Shown: positions 1,878-21,150 of the stretch, in pieces | Numbering within the stretch: the first letter of the stretch is position 1 | How the letters are laid out: every line of letters starts with the position of its first letter | Virus record (IMG/VR): IMGVR_UViG_3300029643_000012 | From: a virus | Lineage: Duplodnaviria; Heunggongvirae; Uroviricota; Caudoviricetes | DNA: 21,714 nucleotides | Direction: 5' to 3' (one strand) | Position numbers and translations under genes: made by a program | Notes under the pieces: model-generated | The model's database searches: none | What the model was told of the DNA's origin: nothing | The model's input: the letters and a program-made list of their open reading frames with translations, nothing else

Positions 1878-2315
1878 TGAACCGCCCCGGGAATCCTGGA
1901 GACTAAACTTCCTGAGAAAGAGGTAAACAGGATGACTAAAAATACTCGTTTTTCCCCCGAAGTCCGTCAACGGGCAGTCCGTATGGTTCTGGAAAGTCAG
2001 AGCGAATATGACTCACAATGGGCGACAATTTGTTCCATTGCTCCAAAGATTGGCTGTACGCCGGAGACTCTGCGTGTCTGGGTTCGCCAGCATGAGCGGG
2101 ATACCGGGGGCGGTGATGGAGGGCTCACCACCGCTGAACGTCAGCGTCTGAAAGAGCTGGAACGTGAAAATCGTGAACTGCGCCGCAGTAACGATATCCT
2201 TCGCCAGGCTTCCGCTTATTTTGCGAAGGCGGAGTTCGACCGCCTCTGGAAAAAATGATGCCACTGCTGGATAAGCTGCGTGAGCAGTACGGGGTCGGAC
2301 CGCTATGCAGCGAAC
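1878..2315 (+). mobile_element. Truncated IS3-family insertion sequence (IS629-like): left terminus, intact orfA, first ~19 codons of orfB
   Basis: Element starts TGAACCGCCCCGGG... at 1878. orfA translation matches IS629 OrfA as remembered. The next ORF begins [19 protein letters not shown] and then diverges into a stop after 28 codons, so the element is truncated near 2315 and no right inverted repeat is present. Confidence 0.7.
1932..2258 (+). CDS. IS3-family transposase OrfA (IS629-like)
   Basis: 108 aa; helix-turn-helix N-terminus and leucine-zipper-like C-terminus ([26 protein letters not shown]) typical of IS3-family OrfA. Confidence 0.8.
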
Positions 2316-2604: not shown

Positions 2605-3227
2605 CATGGTGTTCACAGAACACGCAGTTACCGGACACATCAGTTTTCCATTCGCTCCCCGGCAGTACAGGCTTCCCCTCTGACGGGATAGCCTGAAAAA
2701 ATAACACAGAAAATTATTTGTTATAATTAATATAACTTACTCAAAAAAAAGCGACGAGAAAATCAGCATCAACGAACAATAAGCGCCAATACGTGATAAC
2801 AAATGGCAGCCATATTTATCTGCAGTATAAGCAATGGACAGGATAACCACACCAGAAACCGTCAGCATAAAATCCACTTGAACTTCCCCGGACAAAATCG
2901 ACTCATCTAAAGATTTACAGCTCTTTTTATTATCAATATGTTAAAAGTAAAATAAACAGATGTTCAATAACACGAATACAAAAACGTGCTGAAATTCAAT
3001 GAATCCATTTCTGTGTCATCAATTAATAGTGATAAACATCCGGTTTCTTCCACCATCGCACCGGACAGGCGACTATGAGGGGACAACGCCGCGCTCCGTT
3101 AACGCGGTAAACCCCGGTGTGTATCGTTTTTGATTATCCCCGCACACTCGCGCAGAGGAGTCTCCCTGTCGGGCTGCGGTCTCTGTTAATGAGGGAATAC
3201 AGCGACGATACGGCGCATCAACAAAAC

Positions 3228-3695
3228 TTATTTCAGGCACTGAGTACGGATATATTCCTGCGCCCCTTCCAGTTGCTTCTGCATCGTCATCAGCCGCTCT
3301 CTGAGGGTGAAATAATCCCGTGTAACGGTGTCTGCCAGTTGGGGGCCGGTTGCATTATCCACGCGGGCGGTGCCGGTGGCTTCACGCACGGGACCTGGAC
3401 AGGTGGCGTTGATACGCAGGCGCTTACGACCAGCGGCAACGTCAGCGCGAAGAGTTTCATTTTCAGCTTTCGCATCAGCTAACTCCTTCGTGTATTTTGC
3501 ATCGAGCGCAGCAACATCACGCTGACGCATCTGTATGTCAGTAATTACCGCGTTCGCCAGCGTCAGTTCTCTGGCATTTTTGTCGCGCTGGGCTTTGTAG
3601 GTAATGGCGTTATCACGGTAATGATTAACAGCCCATGACAGGCAGACGATGATGCAGATAACCAGAGCGGAGATAATCGCGGTTACTCTGTTCAT
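3228..3695 (-). CDS. Rz: Spanin inner-membrane subunit Rz (i-spanin)
   Basis: Translation [43 protein letters not shown]... closely matches lambda Rz. Start at the internal ATG (3695) gives an ATGA overlap with the endolysin stop. Confidence 0.9.
3290..3475 (-). CDS. Rz1: Spanin outer-membrane lipoprotein Rz1 (o-spanin), embedded in Rz in another frame
   Basis: 61 aa [25 protein letters not shown]...[19 protein letters not shown]; lipobox LVVSAC and proline-rich body matching lambda Rz1; fully inside Rz. Confidence 0.85.
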
Positions 3696-4189
3696 TGCTG
3701 ACCCCACAAACAGATTTCACGCTCAATCTCACGACGAGTCATGAGACCTTTCCATTGCTTACCGCCAGCATATGTCCAGCGACGTAGCTGATCACATGCG
3801 CCTTTGATATCGCCCTGGTTTATTTTGCGAAGAAGCGTCGATGTTCTGAAATTGCCAGCACCCACGTTGTAAACGAATGAGTAAAGAGCGCCGCGCATTG
3901 TTTCCGGTATATCGACTTTGATGTACGGGTTAATTTGTCTGGCGACCGTGGCAAGGTCTTTATTCAGGAGGGCTTTGCATTCTGCTTTGGTATACGTTTT
4001 ACCGAGCATGATGTCTTTTCCTGTATGCCCGTGACATACAGTCCATACACCAACAATATCTTTGTATGGTATGTAGCTGACACCTTCCAGACCATCGTTA
4101 CCACTTGGGCCAGTGATTAACACTGATGCTATAGCAATTGCTCCGCCACCAATAGCAGCAGCAACGGCTTTTCGTAATGATGGAGGCAT
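3692..4189 (-). CDS. R: SAR endolysin, phage 21 R21-type lysozyme (not the lambda R transglycosylase)
   Basis: 165 aa starting [27 protein letters not shown] (Gly/Ala-rich signal-anchor-release domain) followed by a T4-lysozyme-like body; matches phage 21 R as remembered. Confidence 0.9.
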
Positions 4190-4566: not shown

Positions 4567-4992
4567 AAGCTGTGTGACGAAGTAACCACTCTTAACAGCA
4601 TAACCAATTTTTTACGTACGTAAACTACTAAATGATATTTGTGAGAATGCCACCGAGTGTTCAAAACACCACCACAAATGCATAAGAAAACTTCAACAAA
4701 TAACCAGTTAATAATTTCCAATGTTATTTTTAGTTTGTTTAAATTAAGCTAAAGAATTATAGAGCACTTATAAATAAGTGCCATTAATATAAATTAGCTA
4801 ATAGATTTATTTTTGTTCAGACAAGAGCCATGAATAGGATTAGATAGAAAAGGTTCAGATAAAAATAGAGATCTACTTCACAAATTAAATGAGAAACTAA
4901 AACTTACATCTTGAAATAATCACATTGATTAGATGAATATTTATCGCGCAGTGACATCATTTTTTAATAATAGTTCAAAAAAAGGGCGTACA

Positions 4993-6075
4993 ATGAAAAA
5001 ATTAACAGTGGCAATTTCTGCTGTAGCTGCATCAGTACTGATGGCGATGTCTGCTCAGGCAGCTGAAATTTATAATAAAGACAGTAACAAGCTGGATCTA
5101 TACGGGAAAGTTAATGCCAAGCACTACTTCTCCTCTAATGATGCAGATGATGGTGATACTACTTATGCCCGTCTTGGCTTCAAAGGTGAAACCCAAATCA
5201 ACGATCAACTGACTGGTTTCGGTCAGTGGGAATATGAATTCAAAGGCAACCGTGCTGAATCTCAAGGTTCTTCCAAAGACAAAACCCGTCTTGCATTTGC
5301 AGGCCTGAAATTTGGTGATTACGGCTCAATCGATTACGGCCGTAACTACGGTGTAGCATACGACATCGGTGCGTGGACTGACGTTCTGCCAGAATTCGGT
5401 GGTGATACCTGGACCCAAACAGATGTGTTCATGACTGGTCGCACTACTGGTGTTGCAACTTATCGTAACAACGACTTCTTTGGTCTGGTCGATGGCCTGA
5501 ACTTTGCTGCTCAGTATCAGGGTAAAAATGACCGCACTGACGTAACTGAAGCCAATGGTGATGGTTTCGGTTTCTCCACTACTTATGAGTATGAAGGATT
5601 CGGCGTGGGTGCAACCTATGCTAAATCAGATCGCACTGACGGTCAGGTCGCCTATGGTAAGAGCAAATTCAATGCCTCCGGCAAAAATGCGGAAGTATGG
5701 GCTGCAGGCCTGAAATATGATGCGAACAATATCTATCTGGCTACCACATATTCTGAAACTCAGAATATGACCGTTTTTGGTAATAACCATATTGCAAACA
5801 AAGCACAAAACTTTGAAGCAGTAGCACAATATCAGTTTGACTTCGGTCTGCGTCCATCTGTTGCTTACCTTCAGTCAAAAGGTAAAGACCTTGGTGTTCA
5901 TGGTGACCGAGACTTAGTCAAGTATGTCGATGTCGGTGCTACTTACTACTTTAATAAAAACATGTCCACTTTTGTTGATTACAAAATCAACTTAATTGAC
6001 GATAGTAAGTTTACCAAAACAGCTGGTATTGATACCGACGACATCGTCGCTGTAGGTCTGGTTTATCAGTTCTAA
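4993..6075 (+). CDS. Outer-membrane general porin of the OmpC/OmpF/NmpC (phage Lc-type) family; lysogenic-conversion moron
   Basis: Signal peptide [23 protein letters not shown] then [17 protein letters not shown]..., ending ...VAVGLVYQF (C-terminal Phe typical of porins). Plus strand between Q and the lysis genes, as for nmpC in DLP12 and lc in PA-2. The track ORF begins at 4933 but the ATG at 4993 fits a signal peptide. Confidence 0.9.
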
Positions 6076-6263: not shown

Positions 6264-6647
6264 TCAATTAGAATTATTAGCAACGATATCCATATCTAAC
6301 CGGATATCTAATGCCATTAACATCCCTTCAATTATGCCCTCAGCCTTCTGTAACCTTTTCCCGATATAACCATCCGAGCAGCAATGCTTACTTGCCAGTG
6401 ACATGAATGTCATACCACATACATAATAATCTACTAATAAATCGTGTAAATCGCTGTTGTTCTTTTTCAGACGGGCCATGCACCCGCAAATGATCATCGC
6501 GTCATCGTCACAACATTGCGGGCGAGATTTTACTTTTGAAGGAATTAATCCCTTAAAACCGGCGGCAATGGACGACCAGGTCACATCTTCATGATTATTA
6601 GCCGCCCACGCACCCCAACGCTCAAGAACCATCTGAATATCACGCAT
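6264..6647 (-). CDS. Q: Late-gene antiterminator Q (QuuD / phage-82-type)
   Basis: Translation [24 protein letters not shown]...[16 protein letters not shown]... with the Cys-rich zinc-binding region of this Q family; position between the nin region and the lysis genes. The track ORF extends to 6662; the internal Met gives a 127 aa product. Confidence 0.85.
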
Positions 6648-6732
6648 CAACTTACTCCACAAAAATCAGACCAGAACGCCAATTACAAGCAAAAATCAAC
6701 AAAACAGTATTAGTTGATTGTTATCTCTGACT

Positions 6733-7786: not shown

Positions 7787-7959
7787 TTCCTCGCACGATA
7801 TCTTAGCCACCGGATATCCCACAGGTGGGCTGTGTAATTGAAGGTTTTTACGTCAGATTCTTTTGGGATTAGCTTGCGTTTATTTCTGGAGCGTTTCGTT
7901 GGAAGGTATTTGCAGTTTTCGCAGATTATGTCGGTGATGCTTCGTCGCTGTCGTCTCAT
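7783..7959 (-). CDS. ninE: NinE
   Basis: Internal-start product [58 protein letters not shown] (58 aa) matching lambdoid NinE; ATGA overlap with the upstream gene. Confidence 0.75.
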
Positions 7960-8483
7960 GCAGCCCTCCTGACGCCCTGCCCGATCGCCATCAATGCCGC
8001 TTTGGATACGGTAGTAAACATCCGTCGAGGACTGATGAACGGTCGCCAAATCAGCAGCATGGAGCCTTTGCTGTTTCCCTTCTTCTCCAGCCCTGTCGAT
8101 GGTTCGATAAAATTAATCCGTCCATCAGTGATAATACGAACTTCGTCAACACTCTCCAGAGCCTTGCTGAACCATCCGACAGACATATCCTCTGGCACAA
8201 GCATCACTACCGTCTGTCGCTGTTGTATACACTGCTCAGCGGCTTTTTCCACCCACGGCCTGATATTGCTGTACGGTGGGTTATTCCAGATTGCACCGTG
8301 GCTTACCCACTCAGAATTGAGCGCGTCGTCGTCCTCAGTTAGCCAGTGAGCGCACAGAGCATTTTTGTCGCTCGCTGCCGAATCCAGCCAGAATCCAAAC
8401 TCAATATCCAGTGCATCAAAAAGCCAAAGCGGCGTTTGCCAGCAGTCCTTGTCGTGTGCTGGCGTATTTGATTTGATAGTCAT
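7956..8483 (-). CDS. Phage-type DNA N6-adenine methyltransferase (orphan, Dam-like)
   Basis: Contains the catalytic NPPY motif (AIWNNPPYS); likely start [26 protein letters not shown]...; no adjacent restriction endonuclease gene. Confidence 0.7.
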
Positions 8484-8920
8484 GCAGCCCGATCTCCCCA
8501 TCGCGCTTTCCATTCGAGAGCCAGTCGCGCTTCGTCTGACCACTTAACGCCACGCTCTGTACCGAATGCCTGTATAAGCTCTAATAGCTCCGCAAATTCG
8601 CTTACACGCATCCTGCTGGTTGACTGGCCTATTACCACAAAGCCATTCCCGGCAAGGTTAGGAACAACATCCTGCTGCTTTAATGCTGCGGTAAACACAC
8701 ACTTCCAGCTTTCTGCATCCAGCCAGCGACCATGCCATTCAACCTGACGAGAGACGTCACCTAAGCAGGCCCATAGCTTCCTGTTTTGGTCTAAGCTGCG
8801 GTTGCGTTCCTGAATGGTTACTACGATTGGTTTGGTTGGGTCTGGAAGGATTTGCTGTACTGCGTGAATAGCGTTTTGCTGATGTGCCGGAGATCGAATT
8901 TCAAAGGTTAGTTTTTTCAT
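8480..8920 (-). CDS. ninB: NinB (Orf-family recombination mediator)
   Basis: MKKLTFEIRSPAHQQNAIHAVQQILPDPTKPIVVTIQERNRSLDQNRKLWACLGDVSRQVEWHG... closely matches lambda NinB. Confidence 0.85.
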   Translation of the reverse strand: MKKLTFEIRSPAHQQNAIHAVQQILPDPTKPIVVTIQERNRSLDQNRKLWACLGDVSRQVEWHGRWLDAESWKCVFTAALKQQDVVPNLAGNGFVVIGQSTSRMRVSEFAELLELIQAFGTERGVKWSDEARLALEWKARWGDRAA

Positions 8921-11564: not shown

Positions 11565-11675
11565 ATGCCCTCCATAGTAAACACGAATAAAAAAATACAA
11601 TATGTACTTTGCGAATACAAGTAAAAATACACATTGTGCATGGATGGTTCCAGTACAGAGCGTAATAATAAGGAC
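11565..11675. promoter_or_regulatory. OR region: divergent pR (towards cro) and pRM (towards cI) with operator-like TACA/TGTA repeats
   Basis: 110 bp AT-rich spacer between divergent cro and cI; minus-strand candidate pR TTGTAT-17-TATTTT shares the spacer core AAAGTACATAT with the pL candidate; several TACAA...TTGTA dyads. Confidence 0.5.
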
Positions 11676-12335
11676 ATGAAAATGAAATGGTATGAACTGG
11701 CTAGATCCAGAATGAAAGAGCTCGGCATAACTCAAGAGAAGTTAGCCGAAGAGCTAGGTATGACGCAGGGTGGGATTGGACACTGGTTGCGCGGATCTCG
11801 TCATCCATCTCTTAGTGATATTGGTGTGGTGTTTAAATACCTTGGTATTGATAACATATCATTCAACCACGACGGGACATTTTCACCTGTTGGCGAATAC
11901 TCATCGGCCCCAGTTAAAAAACAATATGAGTACCCTGTTTTTTCTCATGTTCAGGCTGGGATGTTCTCTCCAGAACTCAGAACCTTTACCAAAGGCGATG
12001 CGGAGAGATTGGTAAGCACAACCAAAAAAGCCAGTGACTCTGCATTCTGGCTTGAGGTTGAAGGTAACTCAATGACCGCACCAACAGGTTCCAAACCCAG
12101 CTTTCCTGACGGGATGTTAATTCTGGTTGACCCTGAGCAAGCTGTTGAGCCCGGCGATTTCTGCATAGCCAGACTTGGTGGTGATGAATTTACCTTCAAG
12201 AAACTGATCAGGGATAGCGGTCAGGTGTTTCTACAGCCACTAAACCCACAATACCCAATGATCCCATGCAATGAGAGTTGTTCCGTTGTGGGGAAAGTTA
12301 TCGCCAGCCAATGGCCTGAAGAGACGTTTGGGTGA
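11676..12335 (+). CDS. cI: CI repressor (S24 LexA-like autopeptidase C-terminal domain; non-lambda N-terminal DNA-binding domain)
   Basis: C-terminus ...[46 protein letters not shown] matches lambda CI; N-terminal HTH ([23 protein letters not shown]) is a different immunity type. Start at 11676 (MKMKW) or 11682 (MKW); the second has better ribosome-binding-site spacing. Confidence 0.85.
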
Positions 12336-12374: not shown

Positions 12375-12932
12375 TTGGCAAAAATAGATGATTATCAGCC
12401 AAGCCAAGTAGAAGTTGATAAAGTACTTTATTGTAAAAAAATAGTTAACTTTTCTGGCGTTAAATGGAAACAGAAACCAAGTCGCTCTGATATGTGGCTA
12501 CAAGCCCATATCATCCCCTTGGATGAGGATTGTATACCTATACAAGGGCTAAAGTTTGAACTGAAATGGAAACCAGATCAGGATTCAGAACCTGATGACC
12601 CGATTTCTTACCCTAAAATAAATATTATTGCTTTCTATCATAACAAGAGGGTTTTCGCGGTAGATACCTATCACTTTGACAAACACACGAATAGTTACAA
12701 GGTCGATCATCCGAAGTACCAAGATATCATTTACGGTGCTCACTACCATGTATACTATGAAGAAGCTGGATACTATAGTGATAGAATAGCGTTTCCAATC
12801 GAAGATGACATAAACCCAGATGACCTGGTAGGGTATTGGAATTACTTCTGTAAACATCTGAACATAACTTACTCTGGGAGAATACCTTTACCGCTTGAAG
12901 ATGAGTCGGGGCAAATGGGGTTTGGAATATGA
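12375..12932 (+). CDS. Unrecognised protein, 185 aa; first gene of a two-gene operon in the rexA-rexB position
   Basis: Uninterrupted 185-codon ORF immediately downstream of cI on the same strand; AT-rich; acidic, Tyr/His-rich (YHFDKHTNSYKVDHPKYQDIIYGAHYHVYYEEAGYY); no family recognised. Confidence 0.65.
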   Translation: MAKIDDYQPSQVEVDKVLYCKKIVNFSGVKWKQKPSRSDMWLQAHIIPLDEDCIPIQGLKFELKWKPDQDSEPDDPISYPKINIIAFYHNKRVFAVDTYHFDKHTNSYKVDHPKYQDIIYGAHYHVYYEEAGYYSDRIAFPIEDDINPDDLVGYWNYFCKHLNITYSGRIPLPLEDESGQMGFGI

Positions 12933-13681
12933 TGTGCTCAACAGTGATCTCACAACTAGGTTTCGAATGCCATCCAATAGGCAAGACCTTGAGAATTATC
13001 AGTCCATTCACTTACTGTGATGATGGAGAGCATGTCGGTGCCTTTATCCGTGAAGTCAATGGTAGGTATTTAGTTAGTGACAGATGCGATGCCTTAATGA
13101 ATATGGAGGCAAGAGGGATCTCGCTTACCAAAAAACGACTTGATGAGATACGACAATTACTGCTTAAAGAAGGCGCAGAACTCAATGCTCGAGGAGAAAT
13201 CATTGCTTGGGCAACAGAAAAGGATGTCGGTGCGATTACATCGAACATAATTAGAGCTGGTATACTCGCATCAACTTTGTCGTTAGACTGGTATCAGCCA
13301 GTTCAAGCTGAAAAGTTTGAAAGTATGGTTATTGATTATCTATATCACACAGAGCTTAGAGACGCACTTTCTCTTCGTGAAAACGTATATGGCTTGAGTG
13401 GACATCAAATTACCGTCCCTGTAACAATAAAAACCGACATACCTAAATACGTTTTTACATCAAGCGTGAAACACGGAGGAAGCTGGAATAGTGCTTACTC
13501 ATTGCTTGGGAAACTAATTGATCTTAAAGCTTCAAGTGAGGAGTATAACAACAGATTTGTTGTTATAGACAGCGAAGCAATTGGTGATCAAATGCAACAA
13601 CTCTCCTTACTCTTCCATGAATCAAGCCAAGTTCTACCATTCTCCAAAAGAGAGACTTGGGTTAAGAGACTTGCAGCATAA
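12929..13681 (+). CDS. Unrecognised protein, 250 aa; second gene of the two-gene operon
   Basis: ATG at 12929 overlaps the upstream stop (ATGA); 250-codon ORF followed by a rho-independent terminator; no family recognised. Confidence 0.65.
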   Translation: MMCSTVISQLGFECHPIGKTLRIISPFTYCDDGEHVGAFIREVNGRYLVSDRCDALMNMEARGISLTKKRLDEIRQLLLKEGAELNARGEIIAWATEKDVGAITSNIIRAGILASTLSLDWYQPVQAEKFESMVIDYLYHTELRDALSLRENVYGLSGHQITVPVTIKTDIPKYVFTSSVKHGGSWNSAYSLLGKLIDLKASSEEYNNRFVVIDSEAIGDQMQQLSLLFHESSQVLPFSKRETWVKRLAA

Positions 13682-14019: not shown

Positions 14020-14117
14020 GATCACCCAACCACATAAGCTGTGGGATGCAATGCCGAAGCAACCGTCTCAGGAGGAGCTTCGAGATTGCATCGCCAAAGT
14101 TTATTCGGGAGGAATCC

Positions 14118-14390
14118 ATGTCCAGAAAAACAGAATTTAAAGGCACCGCAGCTTCTCGCCGTAGAGCTCGTCGCGCAAATCTGCAAAGTCAGGAGGCGAT
14201 CAGCTCCGACAAGCTACACAGGCCAACCCCTTCACGAGTGGTCTTGCAATGCAAGCTCAAACCAGCAATGAGAGCAGAAGTGATAACTCTGACAACGTTG
14301 ACCAGAAAATATGAAGGTTCAACTTGTCTTCCGAACGTAGCTCTTTACGCGGCAGGCTACCGGAAATCAAAACAACTGACGGCGAGATGA
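14118..14390 (+). CDS. N: N-type antiterminator (arginine-rich motif near the N-terminus)
   Basis: MSRKTEFKGTAASRRRARRANLQSQ...: arginine-rich RNA-binding motif like the N proteins of P22 and phage 21; GGGAGG ribosome-binding site; directly downstream of nutL. The track ORF from 14046 is an upstream extension. Confidence 0.7.
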   Translation: MSRKTEFKGTAASRRRARRANLQSQEAISSDKLHRPTPSRVVLQCKLKPAMRAEVITLTTLTRKYEGSTCLPNVALYAAGYRKSKQLTAR

Positions 14391-14406: not shown

Positions 14407-14988
14407 TTACTTGTTTTTGCCATGCTTATCCTGAGCGATAAGTTCATCCATAAGGCTGTCTGCCTTCCCGGCAAACCTAATGTAGCACTCATGTCTATAG
14501 CTTTCAGGGATAACGAAACGGTCGGTATCAGGATATCCAACAGCAGGAGGCCTTCGAACGAGGAGTCCTTTTTTGAGCAATGAAATTGATTCATGAGCGC
14601 CCTTTTCCGTTTGTAGCTGGTTATTAGCGGCTACAGCGAATGCCAAATACGCTCTTTCTCCAAGAGTTAACGAATCAAACAAATCTTGCACATATTTTTC
14701 TTCTTTAGATTTGCGCTTCTGAGCAGCGAATACCTCAATTCTTTCAGTCACAGCGTGATAAGCGGAATTAACAACGCCGTTAAGCACATAGCTAACGCAA
14801 AACAACAGGATGTAATACATCCAGTAATGAGGAAGGATTTCTGGATTATGCAGGTTTATCCATTCTTTTACGCTTACCGGCATAACAATAATCAATATGA
14901 TCAGGATGATTAGCATATGAATCAACTGTTTAAGTGTCATTCCTTGCAGGAAAAAATGCATTAGTTCCTGCCACCATGAGTTGTTCAT
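14407..14988 (-). CDS. sieB: Superinfection exclusion protein SieB
   Basis: 193 aa MNNSWWQELMHFFLQGMTLKQLIHMLIILIILIIVMPVSVKEW...; N-terminal membrane segments; matches lambda SieB as remembered; convergent with N as in lambda. Confidence 0.8.
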   Translation of the reverse strand: MNNSWWQELMHFFLQGMTLKQLIHMLIILIILIIVMPVSVKEWINLHNPEILPHYWMYYILLFCVSYVLNGVVNSAYHAVTERIEVFAAQKRKSKEEKYVQDLFDSLTLGERAYLAFAVAANNQLQTEKGAHESISLLKKGLLVRRPPAVGYPDTDRFVIPESYRHECYIRFAGKADSLMDELIAQDKHGKNK

Positions 14989-15953: not shown

Positions 15954-16025
15954 GCGCGGCGTTACCGCATACCAATTACGCTTCACTCGAGGCGTTTTTC
16001 GTTATGTATAAATAAGGAGCACACC

Positions 16026-16190
16026 ATGCAATATGCCATTGCAGGGTGGCCTGTTGCTGGCTGCCCTTCCGAATCTTTACTTGAACGAATCACCCGTAAA
16101 TTACGTGACGGATGGAAACGCCTTATCGACATACTTAATCAGCCAGGAGTCCCAAAAAATGGATCAAACAATTATGGCTATCCAGACTAA
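16026..16190 (+). CDS. cIII: CIII (FtsH inhibitor that stabilises CII)
   Basis: Hand translation from the ATG at 16026: [54 protein letters not shown], matching lambda CIII. Not in the ORF track (under 60 aa). Confidence 0.85.
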   Translation: MQYAIAGWPVAGCPSESLLERITRKLRDGWKRLIDILNQPGVPKNGSNNYGYPD

Positions 16191-16679: not shown

Positions 16680-17465
16680 ATGAGTACAGCACTCGCAACG
16701 CTGGCAGGGAAGCTGGCTGAACGTGTCGGCATGGATTCTGTCGACCCACAGGAACTGATCACCACTCTTCGCCAGACGGCATTTAAAGGTGATGCCAGCG
16801 ATGCGCAGTTCATCGCATTGTTGATCGTCGCCAACCAGTACGGCCTTAATCCGTGGACGAAAGAAATTTACGCCTTCCCTGATAAGCAGAACGGCATTGT
16901 TCCGGTGGTGGGCGTTGATGGCTGGTCCCGCATCATCAATGAAAACCAGCAGTTTGATGGTATGGACTTTGAGCAGGACAATGAATCATGTACATGCCGG
17001 ATTTACCGCAAAGACCGCAATCATCCGATCTGCGTTACCGAGTGGATGGATGAATGCCGCCGCGAACCATTCAAAACCCGCGAAGGCAGAGAAATCACGG
17101 GGCCGTGGCAGTCGCATCCCAAACGGATGTTACGGCATAAAGCCATGATTCAGTGTGCCCGTCTGGCCTTCGGATTTGCTGGTATCTATGACAAGGATGA
17201 AGCCGAGCGCATTGTCGAAAATACCGCATACACTGCAGAACGTCAGCCGGAACGCGACATCACTCCGGTTAACGATGAAACCATGCAGGAGATTAACACT
17301 CTGCTGATTGCCCTGGACAAAACATGGGATGACGACTTATTGCCGCTCTGTTCCCAGATATTTCGCCGCGACATTCGCGCATCGTCAGAACTGACACAGG
17401 CCGAAGCAGTGAAAGCTCTTGGATTCCTGAAACAGAAAGCCACTGAGCAGAAGGTGGCAGCATGA
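16680..17465 (+). CDS. bet: Bet (Red-beta single-strand annealing protein)
   Basis: 261 aa [66 protein letters not shown]... matches lambda Bet. Confidence 0.95.
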
Positions 17466-18142
17466 CACCGGACATTATCCTGCAGCGTACCGGGATCGAC
17501 GTGAGAGCTGTCGAACAGGGGGATGATGCATGGCACAAATTACGGCTCGGCGTCATCACCGCTTCAGAAGTTCACAACGTGATAGCAAAGCCCCGCTCAG
17601 GAAAGAAGTGGCCTGACATGAAAATGTCCTACTTCCACACCCTGCTGGCTGAGGTTTGCACCGGTGTGGCTCCGGAAGTTAATGCTAAGGCGCTGGCGTG
17701 GGGAAAACAGTACGAGAACGACGCCAGAACCCTGTTTGAATTCACTTCCGGCGTGAATGTTACTGAATCCCCGATCATCTATCGCGACGAAAGTATGCGC
17801 ACCGCCTGCTCTCCCGATGGTTTATGCAGTGACGGCAATGGCCTTGAGCTGAAATGCCCGTTTACCTCCCGGGATTTCATGAAGTTCCGGCTCGGTGGTT
17901 TCGAGGCCATAAAGTCGGCTTACATGGCCCAGGTGCAGTACAGCATGTGGGTGACACGAAAAGATGCCTGGTACTTTGCCAACTATGACCCACGAATGAA
18001 GCGTGAAGGCCTGCATTATGTCGTGGTTGAGCGGGATGAAAAGTACATGGCGAGTTTTGACGAGATGGTGCCGGAGTTCATCGAAAAAATGGACGAAGCA
18101 CTGGCTGAAATTGGTTTTGTATTTGGAGAGCAATGGCGATGA
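17462..18142 (+). CDS. exo: Exo (Red-alpha 5'-3' exonuclease)
   Basis: 226 aa [50 protein letters not shown]... matches lambda Exo; ATGA overlap with bet. Confidence 0.95.
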
Positions 18143-18321
18143 CCCATCCTCACGATAATATCCGGGTAGGCGCGATCACTTTCGTCTACTCCGTTACAAA
18201 GCGAGGCTGGGTATTTCACGGTCTTTCTGTTATCCGAAATCCGCTGAAAGCCCAGCGGCTGGCTGAGGAGATAAATAATAAACGGGGGGCGGTATGCACA
18301 AAGCATCTCCTGTTGAGTTAA
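18133..18321 (+). CDS. Small early-left protein (lambda orf60a-like)
   Basis: 62 aa; start overlaps the exo stop; position corresponds to lambda orf60a. Confidence 0.5.
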
Positions 18322-18485
18322 GAACGAGTATTGATTTGGCACATAGCCTTGCTCAAATTGGAGTCAGGTTTGTGCCAATACCAGCAGAAACAGACGAAGA
18401 ATTTCATACGTTAGCCACATCCCTTTCACAAAAGCTGGAAATGATGGTGGCGAAAGCAGAAGCAGATGAGAGAGACCAGGTATGA
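18294..18485 (+). CDS. Small early-left protein (lambda orf63-like)
   Basis: 63 aa [63 protein letters not shown]. Confidence 0.5.
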   Translation: MHKASPVELRTSIDLAHSLAQIGVRFVPIPAETDEEFHTLATSLSQKLEMMVAKAEADERDQV

Positions 18486-18565
18486 CAACCACTGAATGCA
18501 TTTTTCTGGCAGCGGGCTTCATATTCTGTGTGCTTATGCTTGCCGACATGGGGCTTGTTCAGTGA
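18482..18565 (+). CDS. Small hydrophobic peptide (27 aa; possibly the 5' part of a frameshifted orf61-like gene)
   Basis: ATG at 18482 overlapping the upstream stop; MTTTECIFLAAGFIFCVLMLADMGLVQ*; the sequence continues in another frame (track ORF 18496..18678). Confidence 0.3.
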   Translation: MTTTECIFLAAGFIFCVLMLADMGLVQ

Positions 18566-18871
18566 CACCTCAGCAAGAAAACGCCCTTCGCAGCATTGCC
18601 CGTCAGGCTAATTCTGAAATCAAAAAAGTCAGACAGCAGTTTCCAAAAACGTCAATGACATTTGCCGTAGCGTACTGAAGAAGCACCGCGAAACGGTAAC
18701 GCTGAAGGGATTCACACCGACTCATTTAAGCCTGGCAATCGGCATGTTAAACGGCGTCTTTAAGGAACGATGAACATGAAAAGCAAAATTATCAGGGAGC
18801 TACAGGCTCCTTTTTTATTGTTCGCATTCACCCTCAAGCGTATTAACCAACAGTTCAGGGATTAATGAAAG

Positions 18872-19093
18872 ATGGCAGACATCATTGATTCAGCATCAGA
18901 AATAGAAGAATTACAGCGCAACACAGCAATAAAAATGCGCCGCCTGAACTACCTGGCTGTATCTGCCACTCATTGTTGTGAGTGTGGCGATCCGATAGAT
19001 GAACGAAGACGCCTGGCCGTTCAGGGTTGTCGGACTTGCGCCAGTTGCCAGCAAGATCTGGAGCTTATCCGCAAACAAAGGGGGATTAAGTGA
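18872..19093 (+). CDS. DksA/TraR-family C4 zinc-finger protein (lambda orf73-like)
   Basis: 73 aa with CxxC...CxxC (CCECGDPIDERRRLAVQGCRTCASCQ). Confidence 0.75.
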   Translation: MADIIDSASEIEELQRNTAIKMRRLNYLAVSATHCCECGDPIDERRRLAVQGCRTCASCQQDLELIRKQRGIK

Positions 19094-19419
19094 TGGCTAA
19101 CCTGCAACTTGCTGTTAAAAGTGAATACTTCGATGCCATGATTCGCGGAGAGAAAACGGAAGAGTATCGCTTGTGTAATGACTACTGGAATAAGCGAATT
19201 ATGTTCCGGGAATATGACCGCCTGATTATCACAAAGGGATATCCGAAGCGCGACGATTCCAGTCGCAGAATTGATGTTCCGTATGACGGATATGAAGTGA
19301 AGACAATCACACATCCGCACTTTGGCGATAAACCGGTAAAGGTGTTCGCTATAAAGGTGAATATCAGCACTGAATATCAATCCGCACAACACAAGGTCAA
19401 GAATGTTCAGAGTGATTGA
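19090..19419 (+). CDS. ASCH-domain-like protein
   Basis: 109 aa; contains IRGEKTEEYR, which fits the ASCH signature GxKxxExR. Confidence 0.55.
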   Translation: MMANLQLAVKSEYFDAMIRGEKTEEYRLCNDYWNKRIMFREYDRLIITKGYPKRDDSSRRIDVPYDGYEVKTITHPHFGDKPVKVFAIKVNISTEYQSAQHKVKNVQSD

Positions 19420-19642
19420 CCCTAACACCTGGTACGTCGACCACCACGGCACTCCCTGCAAAATCCTGCGTTCTACCCACAACAAAGTTCACTACATCCG
19501 AAAAGGCAGAACATGTATCGCCAGCATGTTCCGCTTTAATCATGACTTTGAACCTGTGAATAAAGCTGATGCAGATCGGATAGCAGAAGAGATCGAAACG
19601 GCAGAACACATTAAGAAGTTACGTGACATGCGCAGGAAATAG
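19403..19642 (+). CDS. Hypothetical protein (79 aa)
   Basis: ORF overlapping the upstream gene end; no family recognised. Confidence 0.4.
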   Translation: MFRVIDPNTWYVDHHGTPCKILRSTHNKVHYIRKGRTCIASMFRFNHDFEPVNKADADRIAEEIETAEHIKKLRDMRRK

Positions 19643-19781
19643 AAAAATTGATAAATTCAATACTGCATTTCTCAGCATTAAATTTATCTCTATGACCAGT
19701 CAAGAGATGTACCTGCCATGAGCTTAATATCATGTCAGATATATCGGTCACAAACTCCCTCAGCAGCTAAGAGGAGGACAA

Positions 19782-20018
19782 ATGTCTCGACTAATCACTT
19801 TACAGGACTGGGCTAAAGAAGAATTTGGGGACTTAGCACCAAGTGAGCGAGTTCTGAAAAAATACGCGCAAGGGAAAATGATGGCCCCACCCGCTATAAA
19901 AGTTGGTCGCTACTGGATGATTGACCGAAATTCCCGTTTTGTAGGAACGCTTGCAGAACCGCAACTCCCAATAAACGCAAACCCAAAACTCCAAAGGATA
20001 ATCGCTGATGGCTGCTAG
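19782..20018 (+). CDS. xis: Excisionase-like protein (Xis)
   Basis: 78 aa immediately upstream of and overlapping the integrase start; GAGGAGG ribosome-binding site upstream; AlpA/Xis-like size and position. Confidence 0.65.
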   Translation: MSRLITLQDWAKEEFGDLAPSERVLKKYAQGKMMAPPAIKVGRYWMIDRNSRFVGTLAEPQLPINANPKLQRIIADGC

Positions 20019-21150
20019 ACCCCGATCTCACAAAATCTCTATACCCAATTTATATTGCAAATTAGATAAGCGAACCGGAAAGGTATATTGGCAATACAAA
20101 CATCCACTATCCGGTCGTTTTCATAGCTTAGGAACTGATGAGAATGAAGCAAAACAAGTTGCTACTGAAGCAAATACCATTATTGCTGAACAACGTACCA
20201 GACAAATATTAAGCGTCAATGAGCGTCTGGAAAGAATGAAAGGCAGGCGCTCAGACATTACGGTGACAGAATGGCTTGATAAATATATTTCTATCCAAGA
20301 GGACAGGCTGCAACATAATGAACTAAGACCCAACTCCTATCGGCAAAAAGGCAAACCCATTCGTCTTTTCCGTGAGCATTGTGGAATGCAACACCTCAAG
20401 GATATTACCGCACTTGATATTGCCGAAATAATTGATGCTGTAAAGGCTGAAGGTCATAACAGGATGGCGCAAGTCGTGAGAATGGTGTTGATCGACGTCT
20501 TCAAAGAAGCACAACACGCAGGACATGTTCCGCCAGGATTTAACCCAGCGCAGGCAACAAAACAACCACGAAATCGAGTAAACCGCCAAAGATTGTCACT
20601 GCCCGAATGGCAGGCAATATTTGACAGCGTAAGCAGACGGCAGCCCTATTTAAAATGCGGCATGCTACTTGCTCTTGTTACTGGACAACGTTTAGGCGAT
20701 ATCTGCAATTTGAAATTCTCTGATATATGGGACGACATGTTGCACATTACTCAGGAAAAAACCGGTTCAAAACTTGCTATTCCGCTTAACCTGAAATGCG
20801 ATGCTCTGAATATTACCCTTCGTGAAGTTATATCTCAGTGCAGGGATGCTGTTGTTAGTAAATATCTGGTCCATTACCGTCACACTACCTCTCAAGCAAA
20901 CAGAGGAGACCAGGTTTCTGCGAATACTCTGACAACGGCTTTTAAAAAGGCCCGGGAAAAATGTGGCATAAAATGGGAGCAAGGAACTGCGCCCACATTT
21001 CATGAGCAGCGATCTCTGTCAGAACGGTTATATCGGGAACAGGGTCTGGATACGCAAAAGTTGTTAGGCCATAAATCCAGAAAAATGACCGACCGATACA
21101 ATGATGATCGTGGTAAAGACTGGATTATCGTAGATATCAAAACAGCATAG
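20008..21150 (+). CDS. int: Tyrosine integrase (icd-specific; e14/phage-21-type)
   Basis: 380 aa; catalytic-domain motifs (...GQRLGDI..., ...HEQRSLSERLY..., ...LLGHKSRKMTDRY... with the Tyr nucleophile); convergent with and adjacent to the icd 3' end. Confidence 0.9.
   Translation: MAARPRSHKISIPNLYCKLDKRTGKVYWQYKHPLSGRFHSLGTDENEAKQVATEANTIIAEQRTRQILSVNERLERMKGRRSDITVTEWLDKYISIQEDRLQHNELRPNSYRQKGKPIRLFREHCGMQHLKDITALDIAEIIDAVKAEGHNRMAQVVRMVLIDVFKEAQHAGHVPPGFNPAQATKQPRNRVNRQRLSLPEWQAIFDSVSRRQPYLKCGMLLALVTGQRLGDICNLKFSDIWDDMLHITQEKTGSKLAIPLNLKCDALNITLREVISQCRDAVVSKYLVHYRHTTSQANRGDQVSANTLTTAFKKAREKCGIKWEQGTAPTFHEQRSLSERLYREQGLDTQKLLGHKSRKMTDRYNDDRGKDWIIVDIKTA

Follow-up and report, generated by a model that had tools for sequence, protein, structure and literature searches.

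What are the two short genes that stand between orf73 and xis in the prophage of IMG/VR record IMGVR_UViG_3300029643_000012, and what might they do? The window, by which we mean the whole stretch of 21,714 nucleotides (nt) analysed, holds at this place an open reading frame (ORF) that the original prediction had assigned to an ASCH-domain-like protein, followed by a second, overlapping ORF. We found that both are real, selected and independently mobile early accessory genes, the first encoding an ASCH-like barrel whose polar and aromatic site is sharply conserved, and the second a DUF4222 protein of barrel-plus-helix architecture. The two genes and their parts, with structural elements taken from AlphaFold2 (AF2) models and lengths in amino acids (aa), are:

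19093-19419, plus strand: gene for the ASCH-domain protein, 108 aa, phrog_625
19147-19170, plus strand: ASCH signature GxKxxExR (G19-E-K21-T-E-E24-Y-R26, GEKTEEYR), in the loop and strand beta2 after helix alpha1
19309-19326, plus strand: conserved loop T73-H74-P-H76-F77-G78, between strands beta5 and beta6
19403-19642, plus strand: gene for the DUF4222 protein, 79 aa, phrog_285
19412-19561, plus strand: DUF4222 domain, residues 4-53, predicted five-stranded SH3/Tudor-like beta-barrel (barrel residues 10-52 in the model)
19562-19636, plus strand: predicted charged C-terminal alpha-helix of 25 residues (54-78)

Both ORFs exist as first described, at 19090-19419 and 19403-19642, and the second does encode 79 aa. 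The first had been given as 109 aa; the frame is present, but its probable length is one residue less. The gene almost certainly starts at ATG 19093, judging from sequence features, because the TGA stop of orf73 overlaps this ATG as TGATG, a GGGGG Shine-Dalgarno sequence lies about 8 nt before it, and the resulting N-terminus, MANLQLAV, is that of ASCH homologues from many genera and the point at which the PHROG profile also begins. The start of the DUF4222 gene is preceded by AAGG, its first 17 nt are shared with the tail of the ASCH gene, and its N-terminus, MFRII, is kept across genera. An antisense ORF of 154 aa (19021-19485) belongs to no family and is unannotated in relatives, and was treated as spurious.

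The peptide IRGEKTEEYR, on which the ASCH assignment had rested, is present in the first ORF, and GEKTEEYR is the sole match to G.K..E.R in the six-frame translation of the window. Shuffled windows contained a mean of 0.23 such matches, and 20% of the shuffles had at least one, so the motif alone is not beyond chance and becomes significant only through conservation and fold. The Pfam ASCH profile (PF04266) gave 14.3 bits against a gathering cut-off of 21.2 (E = 0.068), with a match that spans only residues 7-29, the N-terminal 23 profile positions; among 56 diverged homologues, six reached E < 0.01 with this profile and two matched the related DUF3850. Because the curated hidden Markov model scores below threshold, the protein is recognised as a divergent ASCH member by its fold and motif.

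Conservation is extensive. We collected 654 homologues of the ASCH protein, together with 750 representatives of 50%-identity clusters from a HMMER search of 1.84 billion cluster representatives, and counted residues in 124 representatives that are each less than 62% identical to the window protein. The signature is conserved among these distant homologues, which upholds the original ASCH call: K21 occurs in 124/124, E24 in 123/124, R26 in 121/124 and G19 in 115/124. Outside the signature, W32 (123/124), Y50 (121/124), G49 (121/124) and G66 (120/124) are kept, as are R35 (114/124, with K in another seven), H74 (113/124), F77 (112/124, with W in the other 12) and G78 (110/124). Near-invariant polar residues thus persist at 40-55% identity. 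Position 7, an alanine in the window protein, varies among the relatives (P in 35, A in 29, H in 22, N in 21 and S in 6 of 124). The ratio of nonsynonymous to synonymous substitution rates (dN/dS) against the copy in Shiga toxin (Stx) phage Stx2 II was 0.085, indicating purifying selection, and amino-acid identity to the copy in a virulent Jersey-like phage (79%) exceeds the nucleotide identity (71%). The window protein, whose isoelectric point (pI) is about 9, is 100% identical to the phage 21 protein.

An AF2 model built with 44 homologues reached a predicted local distance difference test score (pLDDT) of 82.7, with core blocks mostly at 88-93 and one loop block at 77. It has the topology beta1-alpha1-beta2-alpha2-beta3-beta4-beta5-beta6, with a folded core of residues 1-92 and a disordered tail at residues 100-108. 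In a Foldseek search the top 15 matches were all ASCH proteins (probability up to 0.99, template modelling (TM) score 0.44-0.59), and two fold-search methods agreed on the ASCH fold. Structure prediction, which had been proposed as a check on the assignment, thus yielded an ASCH-type barrel. Since the fold scores are modest, the model describes a divergent and minimal ASCH domain of about 92 residues, about the size of 3iuw. In this model the loop T73-G78 is a candidate second wall of a ligand pocket whose position is itself predicted, and H74 is a possible acid/base residue. Comparison of the ASCH protein with PDB chain sequences gave no match; a profile of the 56 diverged homologues retrieved no ASCH protein from PDB, only chance-level matches to ribosomal proteins; and NCBIfam held no model for either the ASCH or the DUF4222 protein.

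The 79-aa protein had been described as having no recognisable family. This proved incorrect: residues 4-53 match positions 2-53 of the 53 in Pfam DUF4222 (PF13973) with E = 3.6e-19 (68.5 bits against a cut-off of 27), the protein matches phrog_285 at 6.3e-37, and precomputed PF13973 matches were found on nearly all of its homologues. Its AF2 model, built with 24 homologues, has a pLDDT of 87; comparison of the protein with PDB chain sequences gave no match. A characterised member of this family is RgdR (ECs1581; c1493 in CFT073), which has 99 aa and is encoded on O-island 51, an element today classed as a phage-inducible chromosomal island (PICI); it activates LEE1 and type III secretion, represses motility and alters Congo-red binding (PMC3378721, PMC10877973, PMC6092414). 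RgdR binds DNA weakly and non-specifically, and its published orthologues are more than 77% identical over 99 aa, with an RGD motif at residues 20-22 (PMC3378721).

We found c1493 itself to be a PF13973 member (E = 1.2e-24), and the window protein to be 26% identical to it over 68 residues that include both barrel and helix. The two proteins have in common the Pfam family, the layout of a barrel followed by a C-terminal helix, a basic character and carriage on mobile elements. They differ in that the window protein is 79 rather than 99 aa long and lacks the N-terminal extension bearing the RGD motif, and in that its gene stands before xis in a lambdoid phage, whereas the RgdR gene stands before primase in the PICI. 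We considered membership of the RgdR subfamily and rejected it, the window protein having no RGD and the alignment beginning after the RGD position. Because of the 26% identity and the missing extension, the window protein is, from sequence comparison, a distant paralogue of RgdR and not an orthologue.

By analogy, we favour a role for the DUF4222 protein as an RgdR-like modulator of host transcription, which would act through contacts with RNA polymerase or a regulator together with weak, non-specific DNA binding. This would fit the proposal that exo-xis proteins such as the TraR-like Orf73 and Orf55 target RNA polymerase (PMC8614690), and the absence from the window protein of the RGD motif that is important in RgdR counts against it. 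The original prediction had also suggested host modulation for both genes; this is plausible for the DUF4222 protein through the RgdR analogy, and for the ASCH protein it is something we can only infer. Segments encoding the C-terminal part of the DUF4222 protein also occur fused to the N-termini of Ea22 (P0203) or orf61 (P0171, 'ybl17') in deletion derivatives. These Ea22-DUF4222 and orf61-DUF4222 'fusions', like Bet-ASCH and ERF-ASCH, are deletion products in decayed prophages and were set aside.

Examination of related phages revealed that the ASCH gene can be lost as a unit. Pairwise alignment of the window with its close relative 1H12 located the missing piece:

about 19084-19365, plus strand: ASCH cassette absent from phage 1H12

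Phage 1H12 retains orf73, an intact DUF4222 gene, xis and int, and from this precise absence it follows that the ASCH gene is a dispensable insertion/deletion module. The cassette is also absent from about 12 related phages, recognised as two-piece matches with 78% coverage, and the leader or junction of the next module supplies the codons for roughly the last 10 of the 108 residues of the ASCH protein. Among 5,426 complete E. coli genomes, 2,799 match at least part of the 553-bp segment; both genes are present in 684, many have only one, and the ASCH-only and DUF4222-only matches break at window positions of about 19383 and 19399. An obligate ASCH-DUF4222 pair was therefore rejected: each gene occurs alone, so the two are independent cassettes. 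The ASCH protein was found by tblastn in 333 phage records, among them Stx phages, HK022, P22-like phages, virulent Jersey-like Salmonella phages, Ralstonia phage RSA1 and two jumbo phages.

The prophage in the window is lambdoid, belongs to the phage 21 type and is integrated at icd. From N to the truncated icd copy it has the following features, in addition to the two genes listed above:

14046-14390, plus strand: N
16013-16071, plus strand: cIII thermoregulator RNA (Rfam)
between the cIII thermoregulator RNA and exo, plus strand: gam and bet
17462-18142, plus strand: exo
18133-18321, plus strand: orf60a/DUF1317
18294-18485, plus strand: orf63/DUF1382
18496-18678, plus strand: orf61-like ORF, 60 aa
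18872-19093, plus strand: orf73, a TraR/DksA-type C4 zinc-finger protein of 73 aa (Pfam zf-dskA_traR E = 6.7e-9; phrog_54; TIGR02419)
19782-20018, plus strand: xis
20008-21150, plus strand: int
after int, minus strand: truncated icd copy

The order exo, orf60a, orf63, orf61-like, orf73, ASCH, DUF4222, xis, int, icd' is that of the matching phages, and the DNA at 18700-20100 is 100% identical to PhiR63_2, 99.9% to ev207 and 98.1% to phage 21. RefSeq labels the two ev207 genes 'ASCH domain-containing protein' and 'DUF4222 domain-containing protein'. The segment had been placed between exo and xis and described as the variable accessory region of lambdoid phages, and both statements hold, the latter in view of the literature (PMC8614690) and of the indel relative to 1H12. 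The two genes lie between exo and xis, on the strand transcribed from pL, and vary among related phages. They are accessory genes of the early leftward (pL) operon, non-essential and independent of each other, in the slot that lambda gives to ea22 and ea8.5. Lambda Ea22, Ea8.5, Orf73 and Orf55 have the same genomic slot and early pL expression context; lambda exo-xis proteins are non-essential modulators of the lysis-lysogeny decision, several of which have been proposed to act on RNA polymerase. The window pair differs in having no homology to Ea22 or Ea8.5; ea22 is absent, and the ASCH and DUF4222 genes directly follow orf73. An Rfam scan of the ASCH/DUF4222 region found no RNA family, and promoter and terminator pattern counts there were at shuffle level. 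As a separate observation, the orf61-like protein matches ZapA below threshold (E = 0.0025; 18.5 bits, cut-off 23.8), and 'cell division protein ZapA' is the RefSeq name of its homologue in Stx2 II.

To what kind of ASCH protein does the phage family belong? YqfB, the E. coli N4-acetylcytidine (ac4C) amidohydrolase (PDB 1TE7/9KYF), is likewise a standalone ASCH barrel of about 100 aa, with an identical N-terminal beta1-alpha1-beta2 register and with G19, K21 and R26 at equal residue numbers. The motif numbering matches YqfB (DDILAGRKTITIR versus DAMIRGEKTEEYR), and matches EOLA1 as well. YqfB-type ac4C amidohydrolases use K21, T24, R26 and E74, and show neither RNA binding nor nuclease activity (PMC9599836). 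In contrast, the phage protein has E24 in place of the T/S nucleophile of the YqfB clade, and a conserved T-H74-P-H-F-G loop instead of the helical insert that bears E74; there is no sequence similarity outside residues 14-26, and an hhalign comparison of the family profile with YqfB extended over this 13-residue motif alone (14-26 to 14-26, E about 0.1). Membership of the YqfB type was thus rejected, K21 and R26 being present but accompanied by E24 and by no equivalent of E74.

The second candidate is the TRIP4/EOLA1-like clade, characterised by K21, E24 and R26 with Ser/Thr at position 7; E24 is absolutely conserved there and Ser/Thr7 is said to be universal (bioRxiv 10.64898/2026.08.01.741249). 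The phage protein has in common with it the K21-E24-R26 pocket, the conserved Glu24 and the standalone domain, but it has A7 rather than Ser/Thr7, is about 60 residues shorter, and possesses conserved W32, R35, Y50 and H74 of its own. The mini-ASCH proteins E. faecalis NP_814290 (3iuw, 80 aa) and P. horikoshii PH0355 (2z0t) are 15-19% identical to it and give no mechanism. Because YqfB membership fails and the TRIP4-like clade is only half fitted, the phage protein looks like the representative of a phage-borne clade of its own within ASCH.

What, then, might the ASCH protein do? The ligand, any catalysis, the partner of the DUF4222 protein and any benefit to the phage are what we infer from such comparisons. 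Our preferred reading, to which we give a probability of roughly 35-40%, makes the ASCH protein a small hydrolase whose substrate would be a cytosine-type base with an N4-acyl or similar modification. The pocket formed by K21, E24 and R26, together with W32, Y50 and H74, would take in a flipped-out or free nucleobase, and the protein would serve as an 'eraser' of the modification rather than as a passive reader, with nucleosides, nucleotides or accessible RNA as its substrates, as for YqfB and EOLA1. We favour hydrolysis because the standalone ASCH proteins YqfB, EOLA1 and ZmASCH have been reported as hydrolases, with the activity of EOLA1 contested, and because the invariant triad is the reported catalytic set.

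Several points weigh against this reading. E. coli already carries YqfB, and the gain from a second deacylase is not obvious. The phage protein lacks both the helical insert with the acid residue E74 of YqfB and a Ser/Thr at position 7. Catalysis by EOLA1 is itself disputed, the human protein being reported to deacetylate free ac4C and the mouse protein to be inactive (bioRxiv 10.64898/2026.08.01.741249). A literature search on the phage ASCH family and on 933W L0064 found no functional study, and the conserved W32, Y50 and F77 would equally suit an aromatic-cage reader.

Those aromatic residues lead to the alternative that survives best, which we consider possible though rather unlikely: the ASCH protein would be a non-catalytic reader that holds a modified base in an aromatic pocket and acts by occupancy. 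Its targets would be N6-methyladenine in Dam- or EcoK-methylated or hemimethylated DNA, or 5-methylcytosine (m5C) or ac4C in RNA or DNA, and its effect would be to tune phage gene expression or replication, or to shield sites. The PUA-superfamily relatives EVE, YTH, SRA and ASCH serve as modification sensors, and prokaryotic TRIP4-like ASCH domains have been contextually linked to adenine-modifying restriction-modification (R-M) systems (bioRxiv 10.64898/2026.08.01.741249). The prophage moreover has its own Dam-type N6-adenine methyltransferase, at 7956-8543 on the minus strand in the nin region (PF05869, E = 5.5e-65). However, a standalone domain of 92 residues without an effector would be required in stoichiometric amounts, and the invariant K-E-R triad is the catalytic set described for YqfB and EOLA1.

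The neighbourhoods of ASCH homologues in other phages offer a contextual hint of a different kind. A DUF551 (EaA-family) gene lies directly upstream of the ASCH gene and overlaps it in Stx2 II and in the P22-like APC_JM3.2, and directly downstream in the virulent Jersey-like AG11; in a Salmonella prophage a PF04447 dATP/dGTP pyrophosphohydrolase gene lies upstream. The loci, numbered as in our collection, are:

L007, 2385-3285: ASCH gene beside a DUF551/PF04447 gene
L015, 1813-2785: ASCH gene beside a DUF551/PF04447 gene
L014, 2501-2967: ASCH gene beside a DUF551/PF04447 gene
L008, 2477-3839: ASCH gene beside a DUF551/PF04447 gene

The ASCH-DUF551 adjacency thus occurs in three unrelated phage groups, and the window itself has no such neighbour. 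In an Erwinia prophage the homologue stands between P and NinB. Nothing in the context but the repeated association with EaA gives a hint, and that association points weakly towards nucleotide metabolism. It is conceivable, if distinctly speculative, that phrog_625 is a dedicated phage 'eraser' deacylase, using K21, E24 and R26 with H74, which would sanitise the nucleotide pool together with the adjacent EaA (MazG-like dATP/dGTP pyrophosphohydrolase/DUF551) or reverse acetylation by GNAT-type toxin or defence systems. If this were true, phrog_625 would constitute a new type of deacylase in temperate and virulent phages, serving counter-defence or the sanitising of the nucleotide pool.

Other arrangements were seen in the same survey. 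The ASCH homologue of Ralstonia phage RSA1 (L005, 3001-6095) lies directly upstream of the DNA primase gene with a stop/start overlap, and so does the DUF4222/RgdR gene of the CFT073 PICI (L002, 4182-6232); this may be coincidence, or a hint that both small proteins accompany replication modules. Long ASCH homologues were uninformative as domain fusions, most of them having no recognisable second domain. One protein of 364 aa (P0275) joins a reverse transcriptase (RT) domain (PADLOC RT model E = 1.8e-20; weak matches to DRT UG4/UG17) to ASCH; it combines a truncated RT with an ASCH domain lacking its first approximately 12 residues, is a single sequence, and is probably a chimeric or decayed call.

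The original prediction had also suggested that one or both proteins could be anti-defence factors. The ASCH protein might, for example, act as a decoy or blocker of type IV restriction enzymes that contain PUA domains, or reverse a defensive acetylation of bases or tRNA by systems of the GNAT type. The location in a variable early accessory region, the presence of the ASCH gene in both virulent and temperate phages, and the habit of ASCH domains of partnering GNAT acetyltransferases and R-M systems in conflict loci are consistent with this suggestion. It gained no support from our searches and we consider it improbable: the neighbourhoods examined showed no conserved association with defence or counter-defence genes, we found no paper linking this ASCH protein to counter-defence, and lambdoid DNA has no hypermodified bases for type IV enzymes to target. 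The six exo-xis proteins gave no PADLOC match, which says little, since that library models defence and not anti-defence.

It is doubtful to a similar degree that the ASCH protein is, in the manner of ZmASCH, a ribonuclease or a binder of single-stranded RNA whose targets are transcripts of the host or the phage. ZmASCH (5guq/5gus) is among the best structural matches, the homologue is named 'RNA-binding protein' in Sakai Sp5 and some GenBank records, and the protein is basic. However, ZmASCH has 143 aa with extra elements, no equivalents of its functional residues Y47 and S128 (known from PDB mutant entries) have been demonstrated in the phage protein, and the YqfB-type proteins neither bind RNA nor act as nucleases, as noted above. 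The last reading, in which the ORFs, or the likeness to ASCH, arose by chance and have no function, could appeal to the shuffle expectation for the motif, to the sub-threshold Pfam score and to the dispensability of the cassette, but it is extremely improbable and effectively refuted by conservation, given the number of homologues, the low dN/dS, the near-invariant polar residues, the confident models with their agreeing fold searches, and a DUF4222 score far above the Pfam cut-off.

In terms of annotation, the ASCH and DUF4222 families are already used in public records of identical proteins (RefSeq phage and E. coli entries), the architecture is that expected of a lambdoid exo-xis region, and one or both genes are found in roughly half of the complete E. 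coli genomes, so that this part of the result is routine. The wider interest lies elsewhere. The phage ASCH family, with its sharply conserved K-E-R/W/Y/H site, is widespread in lambdoid, Stx, P22-like, virulent Jersey-like, Ralstonia P2-like and jumbo phages, at a time when the standalone ASCH proteins YqfB and EOLA1 are being recognised as ac4C deacetylases. Through the 79-aa protein, phage 21 and numerous lambdoid prophages are connected with the RgdR family, which controls virulence genes in enterohaemorrhagic E. coli. The two genes also extend the picture of the exo-xis region, a poorly understood segment that affects lysogeny and the induction of Stx prophages.

Some other features of the prophage deserve mention. 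A 16-bp imperfect inverted repeat occupies the intergenic space between the DUF4222 stop and the xis start (19650-19688). On the minus strand it folds at -18.3 kcal/mol (z = -3.4; 200 shuffles gave no fold of equal stability), and AAUUUUUCUA follows it; the plus-strand fold is weak (-7.6 kcal/mol, z = -0.8). Because of the stable minus-strand fold and the sequence after it, the repeat resembles an intrinsic terminator that would act on leftward (antisense) transcription; we know of no transcript that ends there.

A Gram-negative porin gene of 380 aa (4933-6075, plus strand; Pfam Porin_1 E = 2e-151) stands between the Q antiterminator (6264-6662, minus strand) and the lysis genes (lysozyme 3692-4189, minus strand), in the opposite direction to both, and appears to be a porin for lysogenic conversion, of the Lc/NmpC kind. 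An insertion sequence signature of the IS3 family (1932-2312, plus strand) lies between the Nu1 terminase gene and the lysis region:

1932-2258, plus strand: HTH_Tnp_1 transposase orfA
2213-2312, plus strand: ALIL frameshifting pseudoknot (Rfam RF01497, 75.9 bits)

This element may be degraded, because the downstream ORF at 3117-3482 has no Pfam match. Finally, two overlapping ORFs (12375-13681, plus strand) lie between the cI-like repressor gene (11634-12335) and N, the slot in which lambda carries rexAB. The first, of 185 aa, has a weak DUF6978 match (E = 2e-4, below the cut-off), and the second, of 250 aa, matches DUF1828 (E = 5e-8); they could represent an exclusion or defence module of the immunity region, and sieB (14407-14988, minus strand) is located nearby.

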